A DNA stretch of 64,000 nt. It comes from Eubacteriales bacterium. GTDB lineage: Bacteria > Bacillota > Clostridia > Oscillospirales > JAAYXM01. The notes under the pieces are model-generated. The model worked only from the letters and a program-made list of their open reading frames with translations. It did no database searches and had not been told where the DNA came from. Within the stretch, counting starts at the first letter, position 1. Each line of letters begins with the position of its first letter. The stretch is from positions 4,713-68,712 of the forward strand of contig JAZNAQ010000011.1 of NCBI GenBank assembly GCA_045586595.1. The letters are read 5' to 3'. The translations under genes and the position numbers were made by a program. This document shows, one piece after another, positions 48,573 through 64,000 of the stretch.

Positions 48573-49007
48573 ATGAAATTAAATTATTTTTATAAATGCG
48601 AGGCAGACCAATTTACCTTTTACCGCCTGCCGAAGATTTTAGTGGTAAATGAGATGTTTTCACACATTTCCTACGGTGCGAAGATTCTCTACGGACTACT
48701 TCTTGACAGAATGGGTCTTTCCCTTTCAAATCACTGGCACGATGAATTCGGCAGAGCATATATTATCTACAGCATTGTCGAGATTATGGAAGATATGAAC
48801 TGCTCCAAAGCAACGGCGATTAAGATGATGACCGAGCTTGAAGATGCAGGACTGCTTGAGAAAAAGCGACGAGGTCTGGGACTTGCGAATATTATTTATC
48901 TTAAAAAGTTCATTGCGATCGAAAATCAAGAAGTTCAAACTTTAGACTTCAGAAGTCAAGAAAGAAACATTCCAAGAAGTACAGAATTTGAACTTCAAGA
49001 AGTTTAA
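48573..49007 (+). CDS. RepA_N-type replication initiator protein A-like
   Basis: 144 aa. FYRLPKILV......ISYGAKILYGLLLDRMGLSLSN.W.DE.GR.YIIYSI.EIME is typical of Firmicute RepA_N domains. GGAGGT SD. Confidence 0.75.
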   Translation: MKLNYFYKCEADQFTFYRLPKILVVNEMFSHISYGAKILYGLLLDRMGLSLSNHWHDEFGRAYIIYSIVEIMEDMNCSKATAIKMMTELEDAGLLEKKRRGLGLANIIYLKKFIAIENQEVQTLDFRSQERNIPRSTEFELQEV

Positions 49008-49105
49008 GTTTTAAACCCTAATAATACTAAACCAAATAATAATTACTGTAAAAATACTTATTCAATCATATCGTATCATGATGTGATGAGAAACGAGGTG
49101 CAAAA

Positions 49106-50020
49106 ATGAACATAGGGCTAAAAAGCTATGAAGATTTATTTAAGGACGAGAAAGGCAGAAAGACCGAAGAAATTGTGCCTGTTGATATTAAGGACTTAAA
49201 ACCATATACCGAGCAACCGTTTAAGGTTCTTCTTGATAACAGCATGGACGAGCTTTGTGCAAGTATTGAGCAATACGGAATACTCTCTCCCGTAATTGTG
49301 AGATCGCATAAGGACGGTGGATATGAAATCCTGTCGGGACACCGCCGAGTAAAGGCGTGTGAACTTTTGGGCATCGAGGAAGTCCCCGTTGTAGTAAAAG
49401 AACTCGATGACGACACAGCGGCAATACTGCTTGTTGACAGCAACCTGCAAAGAGAAAACATCCTACCCAGCGAAAAAGCCTTTGCTTATAAATTAAAGCT
49501 TGAATCCGTTAAAAGAAAAGCAGGTAGACCGCCAAAAGAAAATTTGGGACAAATTGTCCCAGATTTATCTGGCAAACGTTCGACAGAAATTGTGGGTGAG
49601 CAATATGGAGACAGTTACAAACAAGTCCAACGCTATATACGTTTAACAAATCTTATTGATCCGCTTTTGAATCTTGTGGACAAAAACGAAATGGCAATGA
49701 GTGCAGGGGTTGAGCTTTCATATCTTGGATCAAAGCTTCAGTCGGAGATTTATAAAATCGTCGAGCGTGAACAAACGCCGCCGTCAATCGCCCAAGCAGC
49801 AAAGCTCCGCAAAACCGCCGAGGAAGGAAACCTTGATGAATCTACTCTTGAATTTATCTTGACCGCACAAAAAGAACCGGGGATTAAACTTGTCATCTAT
49901 GAGGACAAGCTCCGTCGCTACTTCCCCAAGAGCTACACCAAGGAGCAAATCGAAGATACTGTTATGAAACTAATTCAGAAGTGGCATAAGAATCGGGGAA
50001 AAGAAAATTCCCGAGGATAA
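49106..50020 (+). CDS. ParB/Sulfiredoxin-domain (ParB-like nuclease/partition) protein
   Basis: 304 aa with the ParB N-terminal motif (QPFKV...GILSPVIVR...GYEILSGHRRVKACELLG). Confidence 0.85.
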   Translation: MNIGLKSYEDLFKDEKGRKTEEIVPVDIKDLKPYTEQPFKVLLDNSMDELCASIEQYGILSPVIVRSHKDGGYEILSGHRRVKACELLGIEEVPVVVKELDDDTAAILLVDSNLQRENILPSEKAFAYKLKLESVKRKAGRPPKENLGQIVPDLSGKRSTEIVGEQYGDSYKQVQRYIRLTNLIDPLLNLVDKNEMAMSAGVELSYLGSKLQSEIYKIVEREQTPPSIAQAAKLRKTAEEGNLDESTLEFILTAQKEPGIKLVIYEDKLRRYFPKSYTKEQIEDTVMKLIQKWHKNRGKENSRG

Positions 50021-50073
50021 AATTTTGAAGAATAGTGGGTATCCAAACTAAAATTAAGACGAAAGGAGCGATG

Positions 50074-50439
50074 AAAATGATTACATACTCAAAGTCAGGC
50101 AACATCTTGCTGCCGAACCTTAAAATCCCGAACTCACCCAAAGAACCCATTGGCATCTACGGCAGAATGAGGCGTGATTATCTCAAAAAGAACCGCCGCA
50201 GCATTTACTCTGCCATGATGCTTAAAGGAACGCTTTTAGACCATCTTGCGGAACTTGATAAAACCTGCCGTGAGGAAGCTAAGCTTCGCATAAAGGCAGA
50301 GGCAGAAAAACAAGGCATTACGGAAGAACTAAAGGCGCAGGATATGCTCAAATGGACAGGACTTATGAACAACATCCAAAACGCGGTTCGGGAGCAAATA
50401 ACGCACGAGTTTGTGTATGCCGAGGAGGGACTGATGTGA
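50074..50439 (+). CDS. tnpV: TnpV-family transposon-associated protein
   Basis: IGIYGRMRRDYLKKNRR...LLDHLAELDKTC...EELKAQDMLKWTGLMNNI matches the TnpV pattern of Tn4451-like elements as I recall it. The start is ATG at 50074 or 50080, after AAAGGAG. Confidence 0.75.
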   Translation, partial: KMITYSKSGNILLPNLKIPNSPKEPIGIYGRMRRDYLKKNRRSIYSAMMLKGTLLDHLAELDKTCREEAKLRIKAEAEKQGITEELKAQDMLKWTGLMNNIQNAVREQITHEFVYAEEGLM

Positions 50440-51920: not shown

Positions 51921-51950
51921 TTGACTTTTCGACATCAGAAGTGGTATAAT
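51921..51950 (+). promoter_or_regulatory. Sigma-A-type promoter for the XRE gene and probably the downstream operon
   Basis: TTGACT (51921-51926), an 18-nt spacer, then TG-extended TATAAT (51945-51950). The inverted repeat ATGTCGA (51898-51904) / TCGACAT (51929-51935) brackets the -35. Confidence 0.6.
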
Positions 51951-52000: not shown

Positions 52001-52204
52001 ATGGCAGTTACTTATAATAAACTCTGGCATTTGCTGATCGACAGAGGTATGAAAAAGAAAGACCTGCAAGAGGCTGCAGGTCTCACAAACCACACAATGC
52101 TCAAACTCCGCAAAGACCAGGATATCACCACCGAAACCATCGGCAAGATATGCAAAGCTCTCGGTTGCACAATGGACGATATCATGGAGTTTTATGAAAG
52201 ATGA
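52001..52204 (+). CDS. XRE-family helix-turn-helix transcriptional regulator
   Basis: 67 aa. LIDRGMKKKDLQEAAGLTNHTMLKLRKDQDITTETIGKICKALGCTMDDIMEF is a Cro/CI-type HTH. AAAGGA SD. Confidence 0.88.
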   Translation: MAVTYNKLWHLLIDRGMKKKDLQEAAGLTNHTMLKLRKDQDITTETIGKICKALGCTMDDIMEFYER

Positions 52205-52261
52205 ATCACTGTACGGTTTATTGTGCAGTTATTATGAGATAATCATGCTGGAGATGTGCAC

Positions 52262-55200
52262 ATGGAAATAATTGATAATATAAATAAAAAGCTTAAAGAT
52301 GATTTGAAAATTGAAATAAAAGATGGAAGTAAGTTGGCGATTGCCGCTGCTTGCTTTTCTATCTATGCCTTTCAAGAGTTAAAAGAAGAACTCAAGAGCA
52401 TCGATGAATTACGTTTCATATTCACCTCCCCTACTTTCACAACGGAAAAAGCTAAAAAAGAAAAACGCGAATTTTATATACCTCGCCTTAACAGAGAACG
52501 TAGCCTTTATGGAACGGAATTTGAAGTAAAGCTTCGCAATGAGCTTACACAGAAAGCTATAGCCAAAGAGTGTGCTGAGTGGATTCGCGATAAGGTTACA
52601 TTCAAATCAAACATCACTAACGAAAATATGATGGGATTCATCAATGTTAATGATAAAAACTATATGCCGGTCACTGGCTTTACTACCGTTGACTTAGGTT
52701 GCGAACGAGGAAACAATGCATACAACTTTGTGCAGAAAACCGAATCTCCTTTTTCGACCACCTACATAGAGTTGTTTGAAAGCCTTTGGAATGATAAAAC
52801 GAAGCTTCAGGAAGTCACTGACGAAGTTATCGAAAACATCACGACGGCATATAACGAAAATTCTCCTGATTTCATTTACTTCGTTACTCTCTATAACATC
52901 TTCAATGAATTTCTTGAGGATATATCCGAAGACGTACTCCCCAACGAAGGAACAGGTTTCAAAGACAGCAAAATCTGGAATATGCTTTATAACTTCCAGA
53001 AGGATGCAGTTCTTGCAATTATAAATAAGCTTGAGAAATTCAACGGGTGCATTCTTGCTGATTCCGTTGGTCTCGGTAAGACATTTACAGCCCTTGCAGT
53101 AATCAAATATTACGAGTCCAGAAACAAGAGCGTTCTCGTACTTTGTCCGAAGAAACTCGCTAATAACTGGAATACATATAGGGACAACTATGTCAATAAC
53201 CCGATAGCAGAAGACCGCTTAAACTATAAAGTTCTCTACCATACTGACCTCGGTCGTGATCACGGCGAATCTAACGGAACGGATTTATCTCGTCTTCGTT
53301 GGGATACATACGATCTTGTTGTAATAGACGAATCGCACAATTTCCGTAATGGTGGAAAGCTTTCAGGTGAAGATAACGAAAAAGAAAACCGTTACCTGCG
53401 CCTTCTTAATCAAGTTATCAAAAAAGGCGTTAAGACGAAAGTTCTTATGCTTTCGGCAACACCTGTAAACAACCGTTTTAACGACCTTAAAAACCAGATA
53501 GCTCTTGCTTACGAAGGTAATTCTGATCTTATTGATGATAAATTGAATACATCTCGCTCCATAAATGAAATTTTCAGAAATGCACAGCGTGCATTCAATA
53601 TGTGGAGCGAGTGGAAACCTCAGGAGCGAACAACTGAGAAACTTCTCAAGATGCTTGATTTTGACTTCTTTGAGGTTCTCGATTCTGTTACGATTGCTCG
53701 TTCGAGAAAGCATATCAAGAAATATTATGACACCACAGATATCGGCACTTTCCCGACTCGTCTAACTCCGATTTCAAAACGGCCGCAGTTGACTGACCTT
53801 TCGGATGCAATTACTTACAACGAAATCTTCGAACATCTGATGATGCTTACATTGTCAATTTATACTCCGACGCATTATATTCTTTCAAGCAAGATTAAAA
53901 AATACGAAGAATTATACGATGATAAAAAAGTAAGCGTCGGCCTTACCCAGGCGAACCGTGAGCAAGGTATTCGACGTCTTACTGCAATCAATTTGATGAA
54001 GCGAATGGAAAGCTCTGTCTATTCGTTTAATCTCACAATGACAAGAATCAAGGACTTCATCAGCAAGACTATTGATAAAATAGATGCTTATGACCGCCAT
54101 GCTTCTGAGGTTCTTGAGTTAACAGACATTACCGATATTGAAGAATTCGACAGCGAAGACCAGAATGATGATCTTTTCTCGTTCGGTAAAAAAGTCAAAA
54201 TCGACCTTGCGGATATGGACTATGTCTCCTGGCGTGAATCACTTGTTAAGGATAAAGAAGTTCTCGAGCTTCTCACACTAATGGTTAACGATATCACTGC
54301 CGAGCATGATAGCAAGCTCCAGGAACTGTTATATATCCTCGCAAATAAGGTTAACAACCCCATCAACGAAGACAATAAGAAAATCATTATCTTCACCGCA
54401 TTCGCGGATACTGCACGCTATCTCTACGATAACGTAAGCGACTACATGAAGAAAAACTTCGGCTTGAATACAGCTATGATAACCGGCACGGTAGATGGTA
54501 AATCAACCGTAGCGGGACTTCGTAATGACCTTAATACAGTTCTTACCTGTTTCTCGCCAAAGTCGAAGGAGAGAGATTTGTTTGACTCTATTCCTAAGGT
54601 GGATATCGATATCCTCATTGCAACTGACTGTATTTCCGAAGGTCAGAACTTGCAGGACTGCGATTATCTCATCAACTATGATATCCACTGGAACCCCGTG
54701 CGCATCATTCAGCGTTTCGGGCGAATCGACCGTATTGGAAGCACGAACAGCGTTATCCAGCTTGTAAACTTCTGGCCGAATATTACGCTCGATGAGTACA
54801 TCGACCTCAAGGCGAAAGTCGAAACACGAATGAAGATTGTCGATATGACGGCTACGGGCGACGACAACATCATCAGTGAAGAGGAAAAGACTGACCTCGA
54901 ATACCGTAAAGCACAACTCAAGAAATTGCAGGAAGAAGTCGTCGATATTGAAGAAATGTCAACCGGAATTTCGATTATGGATTTAGGACTAAACGAATTC
55001 CGCCTGGACCTTCTTGATTATATAAAGACGCATCCGCACATCGAAAAAACGCCGTTCGGCTTGCACACAGTCACCGCCGCAACGGACGATATGCCGGCAG
55101 GTGTTATCTACGTGCTTAAAAATCGTACAAACAGCGTGAATATAGACAGTCAGAACAGACTTCACCCGTTCTACATGGTCTATATCAGCAATGACGGAGA

Positions 55201-55873
55201 GGTTGTATGTGACCATCTCTCGCCTAAAGCGTTGCTTGATAAGGTTCGCTTCTTGTGCAAGGGTAAAACAGAACCAATTCCGGAATTATACAAAGAATTT
55301 AACAAAGAGACCAACGACGGAAAGAACATGACGGGGCTGTCAAAACTTCTTGGTGATGCCATTGCATCTATTATCGAAGTTAAGGAAGAAAGCGATATCA
55401 ACAGCTTCCTTTCTGGTGGTCAGGTAAGCTTCTTATCGAATGAAACAAAGGGACTGGACGACTTCGAGCTCATTTGCTTTATCGTTGTAAGAGATACAGA
55501 GTTGAAGCCTGCTACAGCGCGAGATTTCCGTGTAGTTGTTGCCGGAAGTAGAAACTTTAACGATTATAACCGCTTGTCAGATGCCCTTGATAAATACCTT
55601 GCCGATAAGGACAATGTAACAATAGTCAGCGGCACTGCACGCGGCGCCGACAGAATGGGAGAGCGCTATGCCGCAGAGCATGGACTCAAAATTGAGCAAT
55701 TCCCTGCAGAATGGGGTAAGTATCATAAAGGCGCAGGACCGATAAGGAATATGCAGATGGTACAAAGCGCCGATGCAGTAGTTGCATTCTGGGATAATGA
55801 ATCAACCGGAACAAAGCACATCATTGACTGCGCAAGACAAGAAAATATTCCCTGTAAGGTAATCAGTATTTAA
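52262..55873 (+). CDS. SNF2-family helicase with an unassigned ~250-aa N-terminal region and a C-terminal SLOG (DUF2493/YspA-like) domain
   Basis: SNF2 motifs LADSVGLGKTFTA, DLVVIDESHNFRN, LMLSATPVNN and GQNLQDCDYLINYDIHWNPVRIIQRFGRIDRIGS. The last 118 aa (nt 55517-55870) read FRVVVAGSRNF...VSGTARGADRMGERYA...GAGPIRNMQMV..ADAVVAFWDNESTGTKHII, a DUF2493-type SLOG pattern. ATG at 52262 lies 9 nt after GGAG. Confidence 0.85.
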   Translation: MEIIDNINKKLKDDLKIEIKDGSKLAIAAACFSIYAFQELKEELKSIDELRFIFTSPTFTTEKAKKEKREFYIPRLNRERSLYGTEFEVKLRNELTQKAIAKECAEWIRDKVTFKSNITNENMMGFINVNDKNYMPVTGFTTVDLGCERGNNAYNFVQKTESPFSTTYIELFESLWNDKTKLQEVTDEVIENITTAYNENSPDFIYFVTLYNIFNEFLEDISEDVLPNEGTGFKDSKIWNMLYNFQKDAVLAIINKLEKFNGCILADSVGLGKTFTALAVIKYYESRNKSVLVLCPKKLANNWNTYRDNYVNNPIAEDRLNYKVLYHTDLGRDHGESNGTDLSRLRWDTYDLVVIDESHNFRNGGKLSGEDNEKENRYLRLLNQVIKKGVKTKVLMLSATPVNNRFNDLKNQIALAYEGNSDLIDDKLNTSRSINEIFRNAQRAFNMWSEWKPQERTTEKLLKMLDFDFFEVLDSVTIARSRKHIKKYYDTTDIGTFPTRLTPISKRPQLTDLSDAITYNEIFEHLMMLTLSIYTPTHYILSSKIKKYEELYDDKKVSVGLTQANREQGIRRLTAINLMKRMESSVYSFNLTMTRIKDFISKTIDKIDAYDRHASEVLELTDITDIEEFDSEDQNDDLFSFGKKVKIDLADMDYVSWRESLVKDKEVLELLTLMVNDITAEHDSKLQELLYILANKVNNPINEDNKKIIIFTAFADTARYLYDNVSDYMKKNFGLNTAMITGTVDGKSTVAGLRNDLNTVLTCFSPKSKERDLFDSIPKVDIDILIATDCISEGQNLQDCDYLINYDIHWNPVRIIQRFGRIDRIGSTNSVIQLVNFWPNITLDEYIDLKAKVETRMKIVDMTATGDDNIISEEEKTDLEYRKAQLKKLQEEVVDIEEMSTGISIMDLGLNEFRLDLLDYIKTHPHIEKTPFGLHTVTAATDDMPAGVIYVLKNRTNSVNIDSQNRLHPFYMVYISNDGEVVCDHLSPKALLDKVRFLCKGKTEPIPELYKEFNKETNDGKNMTGLSKLLGDAIASIIEVKEESDINSFLSGGQVSFLSNETKGLDDFELICFIVVRDTELKPATARDFRVVVAGSRNFNDYNRLSDALDKYLADKDNVTIVSGTARGADRMGERYAAEHGLKIEQFPAEWGKYHKGAGPIRNMQMVQSADAVVAFWDNESTGTKHIIDCARQENIPCKVISI

Positions 55874-55891: not shown

Positions 55892-56497
55892 TTGCTAAGT
55901 TTACCGAAATCCACAGAACTTAAAAAGCAACTTCCTAAAAATGCGATATATGCAAAGTTTAATATGAACAACGCACAAAAGGAAAGGTTCGATGCAGATA
56001 TTTCAAGGATAAATATCATAGCAGAAATATCACCATCCACTACTAACATCGCAAAGGGCGAAACTGTATCGTCTATTTACATCGTTCAGGTTATGCTCAA
56101 GCGCAAAGAATTTGATGAAAGAACCATAATTCAGCTTTCAAAGCTAATTGACCAGAATATGATTCTCGCTTTAGAGTTTGAGAATATGACAAAACTTGCC
56201 ATATATCACACCAAACTACTTCAAAGTGAATGGTGCGACAAGGAAGATGCAAAGATAGAACTCAAAGGTCTCAACCTCGACAAAGTATGGGAGAGCATCA
56301 TAAAACAAATCGGTGATATCGAAGTTTCGGAAGGTCTATCGCTTGATGAACAGATTTCACAAAACGAAGAAAGAGCAAAACTCGAAAAAGAAATAGCACG
56401 GCTTGAAAAACAAGCTCGTGCAGAAAAGCAGCCAAAGAAGAAATTCGAACTGGTGCAAAAGATAAATGAGTTGCGAAATATACAACGTGAGGGATAG
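55892..56497 (+). CDS. DUF4391 domain protein
   Basis: 201 aa. The N-terminus LPKSTELKKQLPKNAIYAKF..., followed by ISPSTTNIAKGETV, matches my recollection of DUF4391 proteins encoded next to SNF2 helicases and methyltransferases. TTG start after GAGGAGGTGA. Confidence 0.65.
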   Translation: MLSLPKSTELKKQLPKNAIYAKFNMNNAQKERFDADISRINIIAEISPSTTNIAKGETVSSIYIVQVMLKRKEFDERTIIQLSKLIDQNMILALEFENMTKLAIYHTKLLQSEWCDKEDAKIELKGLNLDKVWESIIKQIGDIEVSEGLSLDEQISQNEERAKLEKEIARLEKQARAEKQPKKKFELVQKINELRNIQREG

Positions 56498-56502
56498 TTT
56501 AA

Positions 56503-57357
56503 ATGGCAAGAAAAAATATTTTTCAGTTAGTAGAAGAAAATTACGATATACAAGATGAAATAAGGAAAATAAATAAACTTTTCGCTGAAGAGGATTATTT
56601 TGAGAACAATGACAATTATTATACTTTACAAAGATTAATGCGATACTACTTATTTCCGAATTGGAAATATCGCGGAACATGTCTTACCATAGAAGAATTT
56701 TTCGAACGTGTTGATGCAACTATACCAAATATGAATCGCATAAGAGAAGCCCAAATCATTAATAACTTGGAAGTTATGGAAAACTTCGTTAAATTATATT
56801 TTGATAACAGCGAAAAGTTATACGAACAAAATAAAATTCAATATTATCGAGATTTTAAATCGGTATTCTGTGAATTGATCAATACTCTCGAAAAAAGAAT
56901 GGGGCTTACCACTCGCGAATACAAAGATAAAGTCATTCTGTATCCTAAAAATGCACCGCTCGAAAAAGTTATCGATTTATGTGATGATGAGGATGTTCAG
57001 TGGGAACTTATACGATATGTAAGAGAAGATTTATCGCTAACTGAAAAAAGAAAATCTCTTGCCTTTCTTGCCACTAATCTCTACATTGAGGAAGATCGAA
57101 CCGAGAAAAATGAACACATTAAAGAGCTTGTAAAAAAAGCAGGCAACATTCTCAACAACCTACATATCCGTCATAATAATAAGACAGGAAAATGGGAAAA
57201 CAAGGCACTTGACGCACTTGATAAAAAAGATGCTATTTCTTTATGCAACATGGTATACAACGAAATGCTCACAATTGTCTTATTGAGAGAACACAAGGAA
57301 TATGAGAAGGTATACAAAGAGTTTAATAAAAAACAAAAGGAAGCACGAGCTAAATAG
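56503..57357 (+). CDS. Hypothetical protein (284 aa, predicted all-alpha, no recognisable family)
   Basis: Long ORF on the operon strand, 5 nt after the DUF4391 stop. GAGGGA SD. Rich in K/E/N/Y. Confidence 0.6.
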   Translation: MARKNIFQLVEENYDIQDEIRKINKLFAEEDYFENNDNYYTLQRLMRYYLFPNWKYRGTCLTIEEFFERVDATIPNMNRIREAQIINNLEVMENFVKLYFDNSEKLYEQNKIQYYRDFKSVFCELINTLEKRMGLTTREYKDKVILYPKNAPLEKVIDLCDDEDVQWELIRYVREDLSLTEKRKSLAFLATNLYIEEDRTEKNEHIKELVKKAGNILNNLHIRHNNKTGKWENKALDALDKKDAISLCNMVYNEMLTIVLLREHKEYEKVYKEFNKKQKEARAK

Positions 57358-57368
57358 TAGGAGACCAC

Positions 57369-58574
57369 ATGAAAACTCTTGATTTTTTTGACCCTATACC
57401 GGAATCACTGCGAAAAAGCTTGGAATTACAAAATAAAATTCAAGATAGTATGCAACCTATCCTTGAACAAGAAGAAAAAATAAAAAAGATAAGTGAAATT
57501 ACTGAAGGTGTTAAACTCGATTTGCCAAAAGCCATGTTTTCATCGCCGACTGTTGATGCTATTGCGCAGATAGAAGAAATGAACCCATATAAAGTTATAG
57601 ATGAATTAACTTCAGATGCGACCATAGCCGAAGTGGGATTAGGCAACTACGCAACGCCTATAGATATTATCGGGAATTCTGTAATGAAATTCGCAAATTA
57701 CTTTTCTGATTACCAGATAAGTTCCGGAATGTATGATGCAATTAGTACCTTTGAGAAAAGTGCTTCAATCTTCGGAAACGCAATACAAACATTTATTGAA
57801 AACGCGAGTTCCGCATTAACATCAGTAATTGAATCGCCCATGATGCAATGGTTGCAATCGTTTGACTTCACTCCTATATGGTCTTTTTTTGATAACTTTG
57901 ATCTTGAATGTGATTTTTCAGATAGATACAAAGAATTAAATGGAGCTTATCTTACCGCAATGTATGAATGTAAGTGGTTTCCGTATGCCGGATGGTCTAT
58001 TGATATACGAATGTTTTCAACCATCAGTGAAATTATATCGGCAAGTCGCGGTGCAAGTAAACGCAGAGAAAAAAGAATTGATGATGTAATTTTTGCTTAT
58101 TACACTAAAAGTGAAATAAAAAACATTAAAAGAACTTGGAAAAACTCAGACTTAGATCCGCATATAAAGAAAATATTAGGACAGGCCATAGAAGCTCATT
58201 TGCGAGGAGAATATGTGTTGACAACAACCTGTTTAGCAACTATGTGGGAAGGTTTGATACATAAAAAACTAAATGTAAAAGAAAGACTCGGCTCAAAGAA
58301 AACCAGAGAGGCATTCAAAGACCTTATAGGTGATAATGATTTCGATCCAATCTTTGCGGAGTTTTATGAAAATTTTATTGTATGTGATTGTAATTCCCCA
58401 GACGAAGTCATTGAAGGAATCCCTAATCGAAACGGTATTTCACACAGTAAGTATAAGAAGTATCCTAACAAAAAGGCTTCTCTCAATGCAATTTTGCTCA
58501 CAGATTTTATAATCGGACTTAAGCCAAAAGAAATGGTGGTAAAGAACAAAGAAGAAACGGAGATCAATATATGA
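57369..58574 (+). CDS. Hypothetical protein (401 aa) with a C-terminal HEPN-like domain (Rx4H motif)
   Basis: TAGGAG SD. The C-terminal ~170 aa is helical, with ILGQAIEAHLRGEYVLTTTCLATMWEGLI and later IPNRNGISHS (R-N-G-I-S-H at nt 58428-58445). This is the spacing and context typical of HEPN RNase domains. Confidence 0.6.
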   Translation: MKTLDFFDPIPESLRKSLELQNKIQDSMQPILEQEEKIKKISEITEGVKLDLPKAMFSSPTVDAIAQIEEMNPYKVIDELTSDATIAEVGLGNYATPIDIIGNSVMKFANYFSDYQISSGMYDAISTFEKSASIFGNAIQTFIENASSALTSVIESPMMQWLQSFDFTPIWSFFDNFDLECDFSDRYKELNGAYLTAMYECKWFPYAGWSIDIRMFSTISEIISASRGASKRREKRIDDVIFAYYTKSEIKNIKRTWKNSDLDPHIKKILGQAIEAHLRGEYVLTTTCLATMWEGLIHKKLNVKERLGSKKTREAFKDLIGDNDFDPIFAEFYENFIVCDCNSPDEVIEGIPNRNGISHSKYKKYPNKKASLNAILLTDFIIGLKPKEMVVKNKEETEINI

Positions 58575-59086
58575 AAGAGTGGAGTGCATTTTTTACTAAT
58601 CTAATTGACAAATTTGATTTCAAGGAACTTATGATTTGTCTTTTTGTTGTTTTATCTTTGATGTTAGTTCCTCGGATTAATGTTTTAAGTTTTTTAATGC
58701 CGCTTGATAGCGCGAAAAAATGGATTGTCTTTGTTTTTGTTTTAATTGCTGTATACCTTGTTTTGACTCTAATTATCCTAATATGGAAAAGTGCAAAAAA
58801 ATATAATGATCACAAACCAAAGCAACTTGCAAAAATGATGAAAAAATACGGCAAATATCTCGAGGTTTTTTATTCAAAAAACCTCGGTGAGTATTCTAAA
58901 TGTGCTTTCGATTTGTATACTGTTCCAGATGCAGTTGTCGGCAAATTGCAAGAAAATAAGATAATCTACATTGCTAATTATACTCATTCAGAGTTTGCTT
59001 TAACAGATCAAGCGAGAAAAAAACTAACGCAAAGAAGAAAGATGCTTAAGTTAATTGATAAGATTATTGTCAAGAAAAGTAAGTAG
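58571..59086 (+). CDS. Hypothetical 2-TM membrane protein (171 aa)
   Basis: The start overlaps the previous stop (ATGA), implying translational coupling. Two hydrophobic helices (LMICLFVVLSLMLVP and WIVFVFVLIAVYLVLTLIILIW) precede a basic soluble tail. Confidence 0.6.
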   Translation: MKEWSAFFTNLIDKFDFKELMICLFVVLSLMLVPRINVLSFLMPLDSAKKWIVFVFVLIAVYLVLTLIILIWKSAKKYNDHKPKQLAKMMKKYGKYLEVFYSKNLGEYSKCAFDLYTVPDAVVGKLQENKIIYIANYTHSEFALTDQARKKLTQRRKMLKLIDKIIVKKSK

Positions 59087-59098
59087 GAGGAATAAATA

Positions 59099-61105
59099 AT
59101 GGATAAACTTAAGATGCATACGCCGAACAAGGCGGATGAGAATTATAAAAAGCTTGCGGAGTTGTTTCCGAATGCGGTGACGGAGACTATTGACCCTGTT
59201 ACCGATGAGGTCGTGCGCGCTATTGATAAAGATGTTCTGATGCAGGAAATCTCTACTACTGTTGTTGAGGGCAAGGATGAGCGCTATCAGTTTACCTGGC
59301 CGGATAAGAAAAAGTCTGTTCTCCTCGCTAATGCACCTATCAATAAAACTCTCCGCCCCTGCAGAGAAGAAAGTGTAAACTTCGATACAACAGAAAACCT
59401 CTATATTGAAGGCGACAACCTTGAAGTGTTAAAGCTCTTGCAGGAAACATATCTCGGCAAGATTAAAATGATTTACATAGACCCTCCGTATAATACAGGT
59501 AATGATTTCGTGTACGAGGATGACTTTGCACAGAGTACAGATAAATACATGGCAAATAGTGGTCAGTTTGATGAAGAAGGAAATCGTCTCGTGCATAACA
59601 CAGAGAGTAATGGACGTTTTCATACGGATTGGTTAAATATGATGTATCCTCGTCTTAGAATTGCAAAAGATTTATTGACGGAGGATGGGGTTATATTTAT
59701 TTCTATTGACGATAACGAAATAGAAAACACACTGAAAATTTGCGATGATATATTCGGAGAATATAATCGCATCGCAGTACTCCTTAGAGAAGCAATTAAA
59801 GGAGGTTCGCTATCTAAAAACATCAGGAATGTACATGATTACGTTGTATGCTATGCGAAGTTTTTAGATAAAATTAATTTTGGTGGCGTAGAAACAGATG
59901 GAATTACACTTGATTTAGAAGACGAACACGGGAAATATGCTAAAGGCAGAGAGTTGAACAAATGGGGAGCTGGTTCTAGACGAGAAGATTCCCCTACAAT
60001 GTTTTACCCGATACCTGGACCTAATGGAGAAGATGTATATCCTATTAGAAATGACGGAAGCGAAGGCAGGTGGAGATTGGGAAAACAAAAGATGTTTGAA
60101 TTACTAAATGCCGACAATGCAATATTTGAACAAAGGGACGATGGTACATATATAGTCTATGAAAAACTAAGAGACGATTCACCTAAAACAAAACAGTTTA
60201 CTACATGGTTTTCTCAAGAATATATTAATGCAAAAGGAACTGAAGAATTAAAGGCGTTATTCGAAAAAGAAAGAGCAATTTTTGATTTTTCAAAACCAAC
60301 AAAGTTAATCAATGATTTATTAGTTATGAATAACGATAATGAGTGCGTGGTGCTTGACTTCTTCTCAGGCTCAGCTACAACCGCGCATGCAGTTATGCAG
60401 TTAAATGCAGAAGATGGCGGACATCGCAAGTTTATTATGGTGCAGTTGCCGGAAGAAACAGACGAAAAATCCGAAGCATATAAAGCCGGATATAAGAACA
60501 TCTGCGAAATAGGTAAAGAACGCATTCGCAGAGCCGGAAAGAAGATTCAAGATTTTTTGAGAGAAGCCGGATTGCCGTATAGAAAAGTTGTTACAGAAGG
60601 TGTGCCGTACGAAGTAAATGGAAATACGCATAAGCGAGCTGAATGGGATTCCCCGGAGTTTCCGGAAGTTGAAAATGCTTGCATTGCAAATTCGTTAGAT
60701 ATAGGTTTCCGTGTTCTCAAGTGTGATTCTTCCAACATGAAAGATGTTTATTATAATCCGCAGGATGTTGAGCTTTCTTTGTTTGGAAGCTCGGTAGATA
60801 ATATTAAAGAAGACAGAACTCCTGAAGATTTGTTGTTCCAGGTTATGCTTGATTTGGGTGTACTTCTTTCAAGCAAGATTGAAGAAACAACTATCAGCGG
60901 AAAGAAAGTATTTAATATTGCAGATAACTTCCTTATCGCTTGCTTTGATGAGAATGTAACAGAAGATGTTATAACAGAAATTGCAAAGCAAAAGCCATAT
61001 TACTTCGTAATGCGCGATAGCTCCATGGCAGATGACAACGTCGCCACTAACTTCGAGCAGATTTTTGCAACCTACAGCCCCGACACAGTAAGGAAGGTGC
61101 TGTAA
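59099..61105 (+). CDS. mod: Type III restriction-modification Mod subunit (beta-class N6-adenine/N4-cytosine DNA methyltransferase)
   Basis: 668 aa. Catalytic motif IV IYIDPPYNTGNDF comes before SAM motif I VLDFFSGSATTAHA, which is the beta-class order. The central region is variable (TRD-like). TAGGAGG SD. Confidence 0.88.
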   Translation: MDKLKMHTPNKADENYKKLAELFPNAVTETIDPVTDEVVRAIDKDVLMQEISTTVVEGKDERYQFTWPDKKKSVLLANAPINKTLRPCREESVNFDTTENLYIEGDNLEVLKLLQETYLGKIKMIYIDPPYNTGNDFVYEDDFAQSTDKYMANSGQFDEEGNRLVHNTESNGRFHTDWLNMMYPRLRIAKDLLTEDGVIFISIDDNEIENTLKICDDIFGEYNRIAVLLREAIKGGSLSKNIRNVHDYVVCYAKFLDKINFGGVETDGITLDLEDEHGKYAKGRELNKWGAGSRREDSPTMFYPIPGPNGEDVYPIRNDGSEGRWRLGKQKMFELLNADNAIFEQRDDGTYIVYEKLRDDSPKTKQFTTWFSQEYINAKGTEELKALFEKERAIFDFSKPTKLINDLLVMNNDNECVVLDFFSGSATTAHAVMQLNAEDGGHRKFIMVQLPEETDEKSEAYKAGYKNICEIGKERIRRAGKKIQDFLREAGLPYRKVVTEGVPYEVNGNTHKRAEWDSPEFPEVENACIANSLDIGFRVLKCDSSNMKDVYYNPQDVELSLFGSSVDNIKEDRTPEDLLFQVMLDLGVLLSSKIEETTISGKKVFNIADNFLIACFDENVTEDVITEIAKQKPYYFVMRDSSMADDNVATNFEQIFATYSPDTVRKVL

Positions 61106-62082
61106 TGAGTAACTATGGAACATGTCCTTACTGCCATTCGAATATAATATATTCGCAATTTGGAACCAATCAAGTCCATGAATTGATTGAGTGTCCAAGT
61201 TGTGGAAGATTTGAAATCAGGAAATTACCTTTTCAGACAGGAAAAGATATTAAAGATGAAACTGCTTCATATTTGTATTATCACTCTGAGGATAGGTTCT
61301 TAAATTTTCTTGGAGATAAGGATTTATATGAAAGTGATTATAGTCATTCAGAAGATATTTCGTATGTGTCCAGAGAAGAGATACTTGCTTTTCAACCAAA
61401 AAGTTTTGCCGAAAGAATCGACATGATATTATTAGAATTTGCCAAAAAATCTGATTTTATTGGTGAAGAAATAGTACTTTCAAAAGAGCAAACATATAGT
61501 TTGCTATTCATAAAAAGACATGATGCAGAAGGAAATCTTTTGAAAAAAGAGATAGTTTCCTCGCAATTGCGTGAAATAACTGACTATTTAGAAGAAAATA
61601 AATATACAGAAGGTTACTATCAAGATGGTGCCGTGTTTGTTTTGAAGCCTGAAGGGTGGAAAAGAGTGGACGAGTTGCAGAAAAATGCAACTGCAAACTC
61701 AAAAACTGCTTTTGTAGCAATGTCTTTTGATAAGGAAATGAAACCTATTGAAGATGCTATTAGAGCAGCAATCACAAAGTGTAAATTCGTACCGATGATT
61801 ATTAAGGACAAGGAATATAATAGGCAGATTGTTCCAGAGATACTTCATGAAATAAGACAATCAAGATTTGTTGTTGCAGAATTTACTAATCACAATAATG
61901 GTGCTTATTATGAGGCTGGATATGCTTTTGCTTTAGGAAAAGAAGTGATTCATCTTTGTAACGATGATAGTTTTGAACAAGATGCACATTTTGACGTAAA
62001 GCAAGTTAACACAATTCGCTGGAAAACTACAGAAGATTTAGAGCAAAAACTTATTAAAAGAATAAACGCAACCATATCATGA
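61105..62082 (+). CDS. Zn-ribbon protein with a C-terminal nucleoside 2-deoxyribosyltransferase-like / TIR-like Rossmannoid domain
   Basis: The ATG overlaps the mod stop (TAATG). N-terminus carries CPYC...CPSC. The C-terminus reads KTAFVAMSF...SRFVVAEFTNHNNGAYYEAGYAFALGKEVIHLC...HFDVKQVNTIRW, resembling the D/N-x-G-T/A-x-(F/Y)-E-x-G-x-A-x-A-x-G-K-x-V block of NDT-fold proteins. Confidence 0.6.
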   Translation: MSNYGTCPYCHSNIIYSQFGTNQVHELIECPSCGRFEIRKLPFQTGKDIKDETASYLYYHSEDRFLNFLGDKDLYESDYSHSEDISYVSREEILAFQPKSFAERIDMILLEFAKKSDFIGEEIVLSKEQTYSLLFIKRHDAEGNLLKKEIVSSQLREITDYLEENKYTEGYYQDGAVFVLKPEGWKRVDELQKNATANSKTAFVAMSFDKEMKPIEDAIRAAITKCKFVPMIIKDKEYNRQIVPEILHEIRQSRFVVAEFTNHNNGAYYEAGYAFALGKEVIHLCNDDSFEQDAHFDVKQVNTIRWKTTEDLEQKLIKRINATIS

Positions 62083-62099
62083 TTCGGTTAGGTGATAAC

Positions 62100-64000
62100 A
62101 TGAAATTTAACTTTAAAATACAACAATATCAAAGCGATGCTGTTGAGGCGGTCTGCAGTGTATTTGCAGGGCAAGGCTTCAATAGCGGTATAGGATATCG
62201 CAGGGACTTGGGTAATGTTAAGCCGAACAACAACGAGCAAATCAAGCTTTCTTCTGCTGATGAGTATGGCGAGGAGCTTGACCTTGCAAATGATTCGGGA
62301 TTTAAGAATGATGAGGTTTATCTTTCTAATGATACTCTTCTTCAGAACATCCACGAATTGCAGAATGCCAATAACATTAAGCTTTCCCCTTCCCTTGTCA
62401 AGGATTTAGGCAGATGCTCTCTTGATGTTGAAATGGAAACAGGTACAGGAAAGACGTATGTTTACATAAAGACTATGTTTGAGCTTAACAAGAGATATGG
62501 CTGGAGTAAGTTTATCGTTGTTGTTCCGTCTATTGCTATCCGTGAGGGCGTTGCCAAAACTTTCGAGATTACGGCTGACCACTTCATGGAGCATTACGGA
62601 AAGAAAGCGAGATTCTTTGTCTATGACAGCTCTAACCTTAATGCGATTGATAACTTCTCCGCAAGCTCGGGCATCAATGTTATGATAATCAACACCCAGG
62701 CTTTTGCATCTTCCCTTAAAGAGGATGGCAAGAGCAAGGAAGCGAGAATTATCTATTCAAAGCGCGATGAATTCCAGTCGCGCAGACCGATTGATGTTAT
62801 CAAGGCGAACAGACCCATTATCATCCTCGACGAGCCTCAGAAGATGGGCGGCGATGTAACACAGAAGGCGCTCAAGAACTTTAATCCGTTATTTACGCTC
62901 AATTATTCAGCTACACACAAGACACAACATAATCTTGTGTATGTTCTTGATGCGCTTGATGCTTACAACAAGCGTCTTGTAAAGAAAATTGAGGTTAAGG
63001 GCTTTGAAGTTAAGAACTTCCGTGGAACGGACAAGTATTTGTTCTTAGAAAGTATAGTTCTTTCTCCAAAGAAGCCACCTATGGCTAAAATCGAGCTTGA
63101 AATTGGTTACAACAAATCCATCAACCGCGAAACTCGCATCCTCGGTGTTGGTGATAATCTATTTTATGTTTCGCAGGAGATGGAGCAATACAGAGGTTAT
63201 TCTATTTCCGAGATTGACCCGATTCGCGGATGCGTAACCTTCACTAACGGTGAGGTTATAAGTACAGGCGATGTTGTTGGCGATGTTTCGGAAAAGGATA
63301 TGCGCAGAATTCAGATTCGAGAAACTATTCTTTCGCACTTTGAGAAAGAGGAAAAACTCTTCAATCGCGGAATTAAAACGCTTTCGCTTTTCTTCATAGA
63401 CGAGGTTGCGAAGTACCGTCAGTATGATGAAAATGGCGATGAAGTGCTTGGGGAATATGGTCGCATATTTGAAGAAGAGTATCTGAGCATCCTTAACGAG
63501 AATATAACGATATACGGAACAGAGTACCAGGAATACCTCAAAAAGACCGGTTCGGATATCCCGAAAACGCATAAGGGATATTTCAGTATTGATAAGAAAA
63601 CCGGAAGAAGTGTTGATAGTGCCTTAAAACGTGGAAGTGAGTTCTCCGATGATATTTCTGCGTATGACCTTATCCTGAAGAATAAGGAGAGACTTCTTTC
63701 TTTTGATGAGCCGACGAGGTTTATCTTCTCTCACTCTGCGCTTCGCGAAGGCTGGGACAACCCGAACGTATTCCAGATATGCACATTAAGGCACTCCGAC
63801 AGTAACACTGCAAAGCGGCAAGAGGTTGGTCGTGGGCTTCGTCTTTGCGTCAATCAGCAAGGTAACCGTATGGATGCGGAAACCTGCGGCGAATTGGTAC
63901 ATGAGATCAATGTGCTCACAGTTATTGCAAACGAGAGTTATAAAACTTTCGTTTCGGATTTGCAGTCTGATATCAAAGCAGTTCTTTATGACAGACCGCT
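62100..64000 (+). CDS. res: Type III restriction enzyme Res subunit (SF2 helicase-nuclease); N-terminal ~633 codons, continues beyond the window
   Basis: My own translation from the ATG at 62100 (after AGGTGA) gives MKFNFKIQQYQSDAVEAV...LDVEMETGTGKTYVY (Walker A)...IIILDEPQKMGG (DEPQ box)...NYSATH...EGWDNPNVFQI... The frame is open to 64000, so it is absent from the ORF track. Confidence 0.88.
   Translation, partial: MKFNFKIQQYQSDAVEAVCSVFAGQGFNSGIGYRRDLGNVKPNNNEQIKLSSADEYGEELDLANDSGFKNDEVYLSNDTLLQNIHELQNANNIKLSPSLVKDLGRCSLDVEMETGTGKTYVYIKTMFELNKRYGWSKFIVVVPSIAIREGVAKTFEITADHFMEHYGKKARFFVYDSSNLNAIDNFSASSGINVMIINTQAFASSLKEDGKSKEARIIYSKRDEFQSRRPIDVIKANRPIIILDEPQKMGGDVTQKALKNFNPLFTLNYSATHKTQHNLVYVLDALDAYNKRLVKKIEVKGFEVKNFRGTDKYLFLESIVLSPKKPPMAKIELEIGYNKSINRETRILGVGDNLFYVSQEMEQYRGYSISEIDPIRGCVTFTNGEVISTGDVVGDVSEKDMRRIQIRETILSHFEKEEKLFNRGIKTLSLFFIDEVAKYRQYDENGDEVLGEYGRIFEEEYLSILNENITIYGTEYQEYLKKTGSDIPKTHKGYFSIDKKTGRSVDSALKRGSEFSDDISAYDLILKNKERLLSFDEPTRFIFSHSALREGWDNPNVFQICTLRHSDSNTAKRQEVGRGLRLCVNQQGNRMDAETCGELVHEINVLTVIANESYKTFVSDLQSDIKAVLYDRP

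Follow-up and report, generated by a model that had tools for sequence, protein, structure and literature searches.

Between mod and res in an operon for Type III restriction–modification (R-M), within a 64,000-nucleotide (nt) window of DNA from a member of the Eubacteriales (contig JAZNAQ010000011.1), lies a third gene, here called X, encoding a protein of 325 amino acids (aa). On balance we lean towards reading X as a defence cassette that is autonomous and exchanged horizontally, in which a sensor is joined to an N-glycosidase, sited at the mod–res junction of a Type III operon associated with an SNF2 helicase and a DUF4391 gene. This view is favoured because the protein is predicted to have the fold of an N-glycosidase superfamily together with an invariant catalytic-type Glu, because the genes that occupy the same slot elsewhere are recognised abortive infection (Abi) or other defence genes, because X moves independently of Mod and Res, and because there is an anti-phage precedent in the effector of retron Ec86, in which a domain like that of nucleoside 2-deoxyribosyltransferases (NDTs) is combined with a winged helix-turn-helix (HTH) and adenine derivatives are depleted (bioRxiv 10.1101/2023.08.16.553469). 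Coordinates are positions in the window, whose end at 64000 truncates res, except where another locus is named.

Read directly from the sequence, the open reading frame (ORF) of X occupies 61105–62082 on the + strand. The mod stop codon (TAA, 61103–61105) overlaps the X start codon (ATG, 61105–61107) by 1 nt in the string TAATG, and the translation start region (61090–61107, + strand) opens with a Shine-Dalgarno-like AAGGAAGGTG (61090–61099). At the other end, the X stop codon (TGA, 62080–62082) is separated from the res ATG at 62100 by a 17-nt gap, which contains AGGTGA at 62090–62095. A first-pass annotation, made from the sequence alone, had described this arrangement correctly, and the peptides it quoted were all found in the translation (CPYC...CPSC, comprising C7, C10, C30 and C33; LKPEGWKRVDELQK; FVAMSFDKEM; NNGAYYEAGYAFALGKEVIH). 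Overlaps of 1 or 4 nt between mod and X recurred in loci L006–L009, L012, L013, L015, L016, L032, L052 and L173. X is a genuine gene and not a chance ORF, since it has many, mostly full-length, homologues in which the Cys residues and a C-terminal motif block are conserved.

A search of 5.8 billion proteins recovered 612 homologues, mostly full length at ~330 aa, and HMMER, run exhaustively over 1.84 billion cluster representatives, returned 7443 matches at E≤1e-3 (4331 of them at E≤1e-10, and 313 at E≤1e-30), so that the family comprises at least 313 clusters of 50% identity at the strictest of these thresholds. Hosts are mainly gut and rumen Clostridia, but also include Bacillus, Leptospira and Fibrobacterota-like lineages. 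Plasmid homologues are named ‘nucleoside 2-deoxyribosyltransferase’ in RefSeq/PGAP, and NCBIfam holds no model for X. Full-text literature searches, in which the Burroughs et al. 2015 survey of nucleotide-centric conflict systems (possibly covering related NDT-like R-M architectures) was not included, yielded no account of the X family, nor of any gene lodged between mod and res in a Type III system.

The cassette nature of X is explicit in the DNA on either side of it, where homology breaks exactly at the gene boundaries: between the window and relatives carrying other cargo (L093/L097), homology stopped at 61107/61112 and resumed at 62091/62095. The slot could also be viewed from the R-M side, using the 80 closest Res relatives (59–84% identity), taken from metagenomes (L093–L172). 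X was present in 0/80 of these, by hidden Markov model (HMM) and tblastn searches. Where Mod was found upstream (69 Res relatives), mod and res overlapped or lay ≤70 nt apart in 34 cases, and at least 30/69 had 400–3400 nt between the two genes; ~45% of junctions carried inserted genes. This cargo comprised RhuM (13 loci), DUF2971 (6 loci), Schlafen AlbA_2+HATPase_c_4, an SMC/AAA_21 ATPase, AbiJ_NTD3/NTD4, Abi_C (HEPN), YhcG PDDEXK/DUF1016, Shedu SduA_C and several ORFs of no family. Cargo-bearing junctions were examined also in L012, L032, L036, L041, L053 and L056, and in X-bearing loci a second gene (Abi_C, DUF4238, DUF2971 or Schlafen-like) can share the slot with X. Within this Type III lineage, cassettes have a precise hot spot in the mod–res junction.

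How often X homologues lie between mod and res, a point raised in the first-pass annotation, could be answered from 80 loci in species-representative genomes, in which ORFs were labelled with HMMs of the window operon proteins. A neighbour-joining tree separated a clade possessing the zinc ribbon (46 loci) from a clade sharing only the C-terminal two-thirds of the protein (34 loci). None of the latter (0/34) adjoined Mod or Res, whereas the mod–X–res arrangement was found in 19/46 loci of the zinc-ribbon clade (19/~39 assessable); 27/46 were without it, seven of them cut by contig ends. Roughly 40–50% of zinc-ribbon-clade copies thus sit in mod–X–res, the rest being solo in mobile or defence contexts, and loci of the two kinds are intermixed along the branches of this clade. 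The arrangement was likewise seen at homologues of 41–46% identity in unrelated metagenomic contigs and at one of 84% identity; a 65%-identical homologue was solo, near a DUF5906 gene.

Solo copies showed no constant partner, no family being present in more than five loci by neighbour clustering and a Pfam census of 113 flanking proteins. Recurrent in their vicinity were Type I HsdR/HsdS, DNA methylases, integrases, transposases, AAA_21/AbiEii-like ATPases, KilA-N and DUF4143. Among cultured bacteria, solo X was found on Bacillus mycoides megaplasmids adjoining an IS6 transposase, and on a Leptospira plasmid, which also encodes a phage baseplate protein, beside a SEFIR protein. At one locus (L003, 11046–12475) a solo X lies in a typical defence island, beside a Thoeris-type pair (ThsA_Macro + ThsB_TIR) and a Type II R-M system (Eco57I-like methylase and BsuBI/PstI endonuclease fragment). 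In near-identical contigs (L006–L009; ~14.4–17.9 kb in L006) mod–X–res is flanked on one side by a tyrosine integrase and on the opposite side by a protein-primed family-B DNA polymerase of 1139 aa (PF03175), which suggests carriage of the unit on a self-replicating pipolin- or casposon-like element.

Even where X is lodged between mod and res, it has not evolved in step with them. Mantel tests on 17 non-redundant mod–X–res loci gave a rho of 0.50 (p<0.0005) for Mod versus Res, compared with 0.14 (p 0.10) for X versus Res and 0.19 (p 0.05) for X versus Mod; across the same loci mean identity was 40% for X, 57% for Mod and 63% for Res. Unlike Mod with Res, therefore, X does not co-vary with either. 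X as a fixed third subunit is rejected on its absence from the 80 Res relatives and on its failure to co-vary with Res, and the proposal that it works as a regular component of the restriction complex, put forward when the gene was first annotated, also sits poorly with the varied genes of the slot and the solo state of about half of the homologues.

The C-terminal domain (residues 199–325; 61699–62079, + strand) was delimited by Pfam matches, Foldseek and alignment conservation, and is predicted to be a flavodoxin-like, NDT/TIR-like Rossmannoid domain of the NDT/DNPH1/BcmB type, closer to NDT and DNPH1 than to TIR. Pfam PF05014 (Nuc_deoxyrib_tr) matched residues 234–289 of the window protein at 28.8 bits, which equals the cut-off (E 1.5e-6), and matched 77/77 aligned homologues at E≤0.01. 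An AlphaFold2 model was built on the alignment of these 77 members (mean predicted local distance difference test score, pLDDT, 90). When this model was compared with the PDB using Foldseek, human and rat DNPH1/Rcl gave template modelling (TM) scores of 0.73–0.77 and the CMP N-glycosidase BcmB 0.72, with classical NDTs at 0.57–0.59 and TIR domains (RPP1, SARM1, SpbK, SPARTA) at 0.55–0.6. The top viral structural match was a model annotated as a CMP/hydroxymethyl-CMP hydrolase (E 4.7e-5), and viral NDT models matched too. The NDT-type fold claimed in the first-pass annotation is thereby borne out, as is its kinship to TIR-like families: DUF4062 matched 51/77 members and the PADLOC ‘Effector, TIR’ model PDLC00733 matched 76/77 (best E 5.4e-9). 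Pfam TIR/TIR_2 matched only 2–3/77 members (E 0.004–0.008), the window protein not being among them.

In the 77-member alignment a C-terminal block, FVAMSF...HNHQIVPEM...NNGAYYEAGYAxGxGKxVI...HFDVKQ...W, is almost invariant, and the invariant residues within the domain are mostly polar (N239, Q241, P244, E245, N264, G266, E270, K279, H295, D297, Q300 and W306). E270, the Glu of the YYEAGYA motif that had been singled out at first annotation, is invariant in the 77 sequences and, when aligned with rat Rcl, falls on the Glu that is catalytic there (‘GVGYELG’). Beside the predicted active site, a subclade-specific change to Y-N-R is found at residues 238–240 (61816–61824).

Ahead of this domain, X carries two further modules. 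Residues 1–45 (61105–61239, + strand) form a four-Cys zinc ribbon (C7, C10, C30 and C33), as judged from Cys conservation, its modelling as a beta zinc ribbon and matches to Lar; C30 and C33 never vary and ≥90% of members keep C7 and C10, in agreement with the ribbon originally proposed. Its likeness to Lar is weak. Pfam Lar_restr_allev (PF14354) matched 24/77 members (best E 1.2e-6) but not the window protein at E≤0.1, which was matched at 3.9e-4 by a Lar-like PHROG model; as the ribbon is a short and generic CxxC...CxxC of ~30 residues, little weight is given to the resemblance. The second module (residues 100–198; 61402–61698, + strand; motifs YPKTFSEKID and GWKRxDELQK) is predicted, from model secondary structure and Foldseek, to be a winged-helix-like domain with a conserved connecting helix. 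A separate model of residues 1–198 reached a pLDDT of 92, and in the predicted models residues ~100–181 follow the H-E-H-H-E-E order of winged helices, succeeded by the conserved helix GWKRxDELQK. Foldseek retrieved winged helices of MarR, PadR, MukE, TubR and eS10 for this domain with a probability of up to 0.99, although E was only 0.05–0.2. Family-average net charge was acidic in every domain (zinc ribbon −1.9, winged helix −1.4, NDT −4.2), and no conserved basic residues were found across the family in the putative recognition helix. Nucleic-acid binding is unsupported for these two reasons, a DNA-binding role for the winged helix having been considered and set aside on charge, and it is no less likely that the domain senses a protein or a ligand.

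Under the cassette reading, the zinc ribbon and the acidic winged-helix-like domain would form a sensing or regulatory module, the trigger more likely being a protein or ligand than bulk DNA, and the NDT/DNPH1-like domain would be the effector, its putative nucleophile Glu270 cleaving the N-glycosidic bond of a nucleotide-type substrate, such as a deoxynucleoside or nucleoside monophosphate (dNMP/NMP) or NAD+. The outcome would be depletion of a pool needed by the phage, or arrest of the infected cell. Placed within the R-M operon, X would be transcribed and transferred along with a first-line defence and coupled to it in translation, and would therefore act as a second layer. The siting itself could reflect mere cassette exchange via conserved flanks, or functional synergy.

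Several observations weigh against the cassette reading. The 40–50% of zinc-ribbon-clade copies that sit exactly at the mod–res junction, with overlapping or abutting codons, are far above what chance would give, and the position could reflect functional dependence on Type III R-M, beyond a convenient integration site. The Pfam score lies exactly at threshold and profile-to-PDB matches are weak (E 0.01–0.1). The second catalytic acid (Asp72 in NDT, Asp69/80 in DNPH1) does not align cleanly: Rcl D69 corresponds to I246, with the invariant E245 one position away, in an HMM alignment that is itself weak. The phosphate-binding Ser of DNPH1 (S87 in rat) is an invariant Asn, N264, in X, which on this point falls outside the DNPH1 subfamily. 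Where >90% of the family has H-N-H (HNHQIVPEM), the window protein and the sequences nearest to it carry Y238 and R240 (Y-N-R). Finally, it is by guilt by association, from the gene neighbourhood, that a defence role is suggested.

An alternative, which we consider unlikely but worth weighing, is that X is wired to Type III restriction, either latched to Mod/Res or to the SNF2 helicase and released by anti-restriction proteins, or destroying the hyper-modified dNMPs of phages. The first form would be a guard of the PrrC/Ronin type, in which Mod2Res or the SNF2 helicase holds X inactive until an Ocr-like anti-restriction protein frees it, whereupon the cell is killed or arrested by hydrolysis of nucleotides or NAD+. 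Such a guard, to which we would likewise give only a minor chance, gains from the overlapping stop and start codons that are kept in many loci, from the 19/46 (19/~39 assessable) zinc-ribbon-clade loci with mod–X–res and from a ribbon weakly like Lar, which modulates a restriction enzyme; it also has precedents in PrrC, Ronin and the SNF2-associated Type III system EcoR22I, which causes cell death on encountering Ocr (bioRxiv 10.1101/2023.04.06.535777). However, about half of the X homologues have no R-M neighbour, so that linkage is not obligate (27/46 without Mod/Res, including the seven truncated by contig ends), X shows co-variation with neither Res nor Mod, many unrelated genes can occupy its slot, X is missing from all 80 closest Res relatives, and EcoR22I works without such a gene; it is the solo occurrence and the missing co-variation, in particular, that make a guard less likely as a general rule. 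The second form would be a non-abortive, DNPH1/MilB-like hydrolase of 5-hm-dUMP or 5-hm-dCMP, which starves base-substituted phages or forces them to make restrictable DNA. It would logically complement R-M, and the nearest solved folds are indeed DNPH1, a 5-hm-dUMP hydrolase, and the CMP N-glycosidase BcmB, with the top viral match carrying an annotation of the same kind; but the exchange of the phosphate-binding Ser for Asn264, the uncertain match of the second catalytic Asp, the solo copies unlinked to R-M, and a large sensor-like N-terminal module, which is unexpected in a constitutive metabolic enzyme, leave it doubtful.

The remaining possibilities appear weaker still. The combination of zinc ribbon, winged helix and N-glycosidase-type domain would suit a glycosylase that binds phage DNA and excises bases, leaving abasic sites that block replication or feed restriction, and NDT domains fused to Abi N-terminal domains have been predicted to act on DNA (PMC3710099). 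The net acidic charge of all three domains and a putative recognition helix devoid of conserved basic residues make this quite improbable. To our knowledge, moreover, no characterised member of the NDT superfamily acts on polymeric DNA. Related Rossmannoid domains (SLOG and some TIR-like) serve as ligand sensors, and X might by analogy be a Lar/Ral-like modulator that tunes methylation against restriction in a new host, its Rossmannoid domain sensing nucleotides instead of acting as an enzyme. The mod–res position and the Lar_restr_allev matches in 24/77 members fit this idea, which is nevertheless very improbable given the invariance of the catalytic-type Glu and of many polar residues, the solo copies with no R-M nearby, the lack of X in most relatives of the R-M lineage and the confinement of Lar similarity to a generic 30-residue zinc ribbon. 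That X is an ordinary nucleoside-salvage 2-deoxyribosyltransferase, as the PGAP name of the plasmid homologues and the PF05014 matches would imply, is hardly credible: a three-domain architecture, mobile and defence neighbours and a place inside an R-M operon on a probable mobile element are at odds with salvage, and sequence similarity to bona fide NDTs is marginal.

The operon around X is, in gene order, a 67-aa Xre/VanU-like HTH gene at its head (52001–52204, + strand, assigned by family search), a PLD(HKD)-SNF2 helicase gene with a C-terminal YAcAr/SLOG domain (52256–55873, + strand, from domain and PADLOC searches), a DUF4391 gene (55892–56497, + strand), three ORFs, mod, X and res. On Pfam and co-occurrence evidence the DUF4391 gene constantly accompanies the helicase within this Type III lineage, and the HTH protein may be a controller of the R-M/defence operon. 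The mod gene, encoding a beta-class N6/N4 methyltransferase, lies at 59099–61105 (+ strand; PADLOC MTase_III, 2.7e-216), and res, of which 633 aa are visible, at 62100–64000 (+ strand; PADLOC REase_III, 6.1e-211). The best-scoring promoter-like site, TTGACT-18-TG-TATAAT, a strong sigma-70-like sequence with an extended −10 that precedes the HTH gene, is at 51921–51950 (+ strand), and no terminator-like site was found on the + strand between 52350 and 64000. These features are only consistent with one long operon, because promoter-like sites occur at chance level.

Between DUF4391 and mod there is a first variable cargo slot (56503–59086, + strand), with ORFs of 284, 401 and 171 aa and no DNA homology to relatives, homology of the window being lost from ~56.0 to 59.08 kb. 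None of the three ORFs had a significant Pfam, NCBIfam, PHROG or PADLOC family, and they are regarded as candidate defence genes. Homologues occupy the same slot elsewhere, at seven loci for the 401-aa ORF (of which L006, L007 and L009 are near-identical) and at three loci for the 284-aa ORF; the 171-aa product is probably membrane-associated, with a weak SieB-like match. Within mod, a central segment (~59760–60350) has no DNA homology to close relatives while both its flanks do, which is consistent with a swapped target-recognition domain and hence a different recognition sequence.

The helicase departs from its relatives at its C-terminal end. The YAcAr match (PF10686, E 1.1e-19) covers residues 1092–1156 (nt ~55529–55723), and homology to relatives ends at ~55480–55492, just before the SLOG domain, and is lost through the helicase stop. 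The stretch concerned is 55480–55873, helicase residues ~1076–1205. The fusion was seen in 0/11 helicases of other X loci and 0/44 beside close Res relatives, and looks like a rare, recent joining of a nucleotide-sensor-type domain to a Type III-associated helicase. The first-pass annotation had drawn attention to two Rossmannoid domains in the locus, in X and in the SLOG region: both are present, but the pairing is not conserved (fusion in 0/55 related helicases). A Thoeris-like circuit, with X producing a nucleotide signal for the helicase SLOG to sense, was considered and rejected as a conserved arrangement because the fusion is absent from all related helicases sampled.

Directly upstream of the operon are RepA_N, ParB_N-like and TnpV genes (48573–50439), preceded by housekeeping genes (Tex, Mn-catalase). 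These directly adjoining genes make it probable that the R-M/defence operon as a whole is carried by an integrated mobile element. A phage origin of X was not supported, as there was no tblastn match in 50,697 GenBank phage records and the three matches in IMG/VR were all to the C-terminal domain only; a match to a PHROG of unlabelled function makes occasional prophage carriage possible.

Comparison with known systems places X among familiar parts in an unfamiliar combination. With DNPH1/Rcl, BcmB/MilB and NDTs it shares a predicted fold (TM 0.72–0.77 to DNPH1 and BcmB) and the motif G-x-x-x-E-x-G-Y-A with its catalytic-type Glu, but those are metabolic proteins of one domain and ~130–160 residues, whereas X adds the zinc ribbon and winged-helix-like module, has Asn at the phosphate-Ser position, resembles them at threshold level and is found in defence and mobile contexts and not in salvage. 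Effectors of II-A retrons (Ec86/Eco1, Sen2) likewise pair an NDT-like N-glycosidase with a winged helix, are anti-phage and deplete a nucleotide-derived pool; unlike X, they have the reverse domain order, lack a zinc ribbon and depend on a reverse transcriptase and multicopy single-stranded DNA (msDNA). No reverse-transcriptase domain was found in any ORF of the operon (using protein models only; Rfam was not searched), and no PADLOC retron-effector model matched X, apart from a weak WH_III-A match. TIR/DUF4062 effectors, such as the TIR NADases of CBASS, Pycsar and Thoeris, belong to the same Rossmannoid assemblage; the PADLOC ‘Effector, TIR’ model matches 76/77 members and DUF4062 51/77, and FVAMSF, on strand beta-A, is reminiscent of ‘F-I-S-Y/F’ in TIR domains. 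Against this, Pfam TIR/TIR_2 matches are weak, TM scores of 0.55–0.6 fall below those for DNPH1, and X has no cyclase, SAVED or conserved SLOG partner.

As a putative toxic effector inside an R-M operon, X also recalls PrrC (EcoprrI) and RonA (Ronin), effectors within R-M loci that are unleashed by anti-restriction proteins, but these belong to Type I, their effector is an anticodon nuclease or a membrane peptide and their linkage to hsd is obligate, whereas X is associated with Type III, has another fold and is solo in about half of cases. The window operon itself resembles in its backbone the SNF2-associated Type III systems (BspHIV/Eco86II group, Murray et al. 2021, PMC8259958; EcoR22I, Silas et al. 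2023), which have an SNF2-like helicase 5′ of mod and res; the window also has a PLD/HKD domain and DUF4391, and its helicase differs in the unique SLOG fusion. In the text consulted, both papers confine themselves to the helicase 5′ of mod and mention no mod–res gene. Defence genes inside R-M loci and N-glycosidase effectors of NDT/TIR type are known already, and the architecture of X, its family and the cassette slot of this Type III operon seem to vary these concepts in a new way; on present evidence X is a well-defined candidate defence gene and the slot a useful mining site, not a new principle.

If the alternative of wiring to Type III restriction were true, X would give Type III systems their first equivalent of PrrC, one based on an NDT-fold enzyme. 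If instead the favoured reading of X as an autonomous defence cassette is right, a large family at present called only ‘nucleoside 2-deoxyribosyltransferase’ would be a candidate single-gene anti-phage system, and NDT-fold N-glycosidases would be immune effectors beyond retrons. The mod–res junction and the DUF4391–mod slot would be cassette-exchange hot spots of the SNF2/DUF4391-associated Type III lineage and, with their complement of RhuM, AbiJ, HEPN, Shedu, Schlafen-like, DUF2971, DUF4238 and YhcG genes, a place to mine for defence genes, as are hsd loci and BREX; the locus would also offer a system for direct tests of layered defence by R-M plus Abi.

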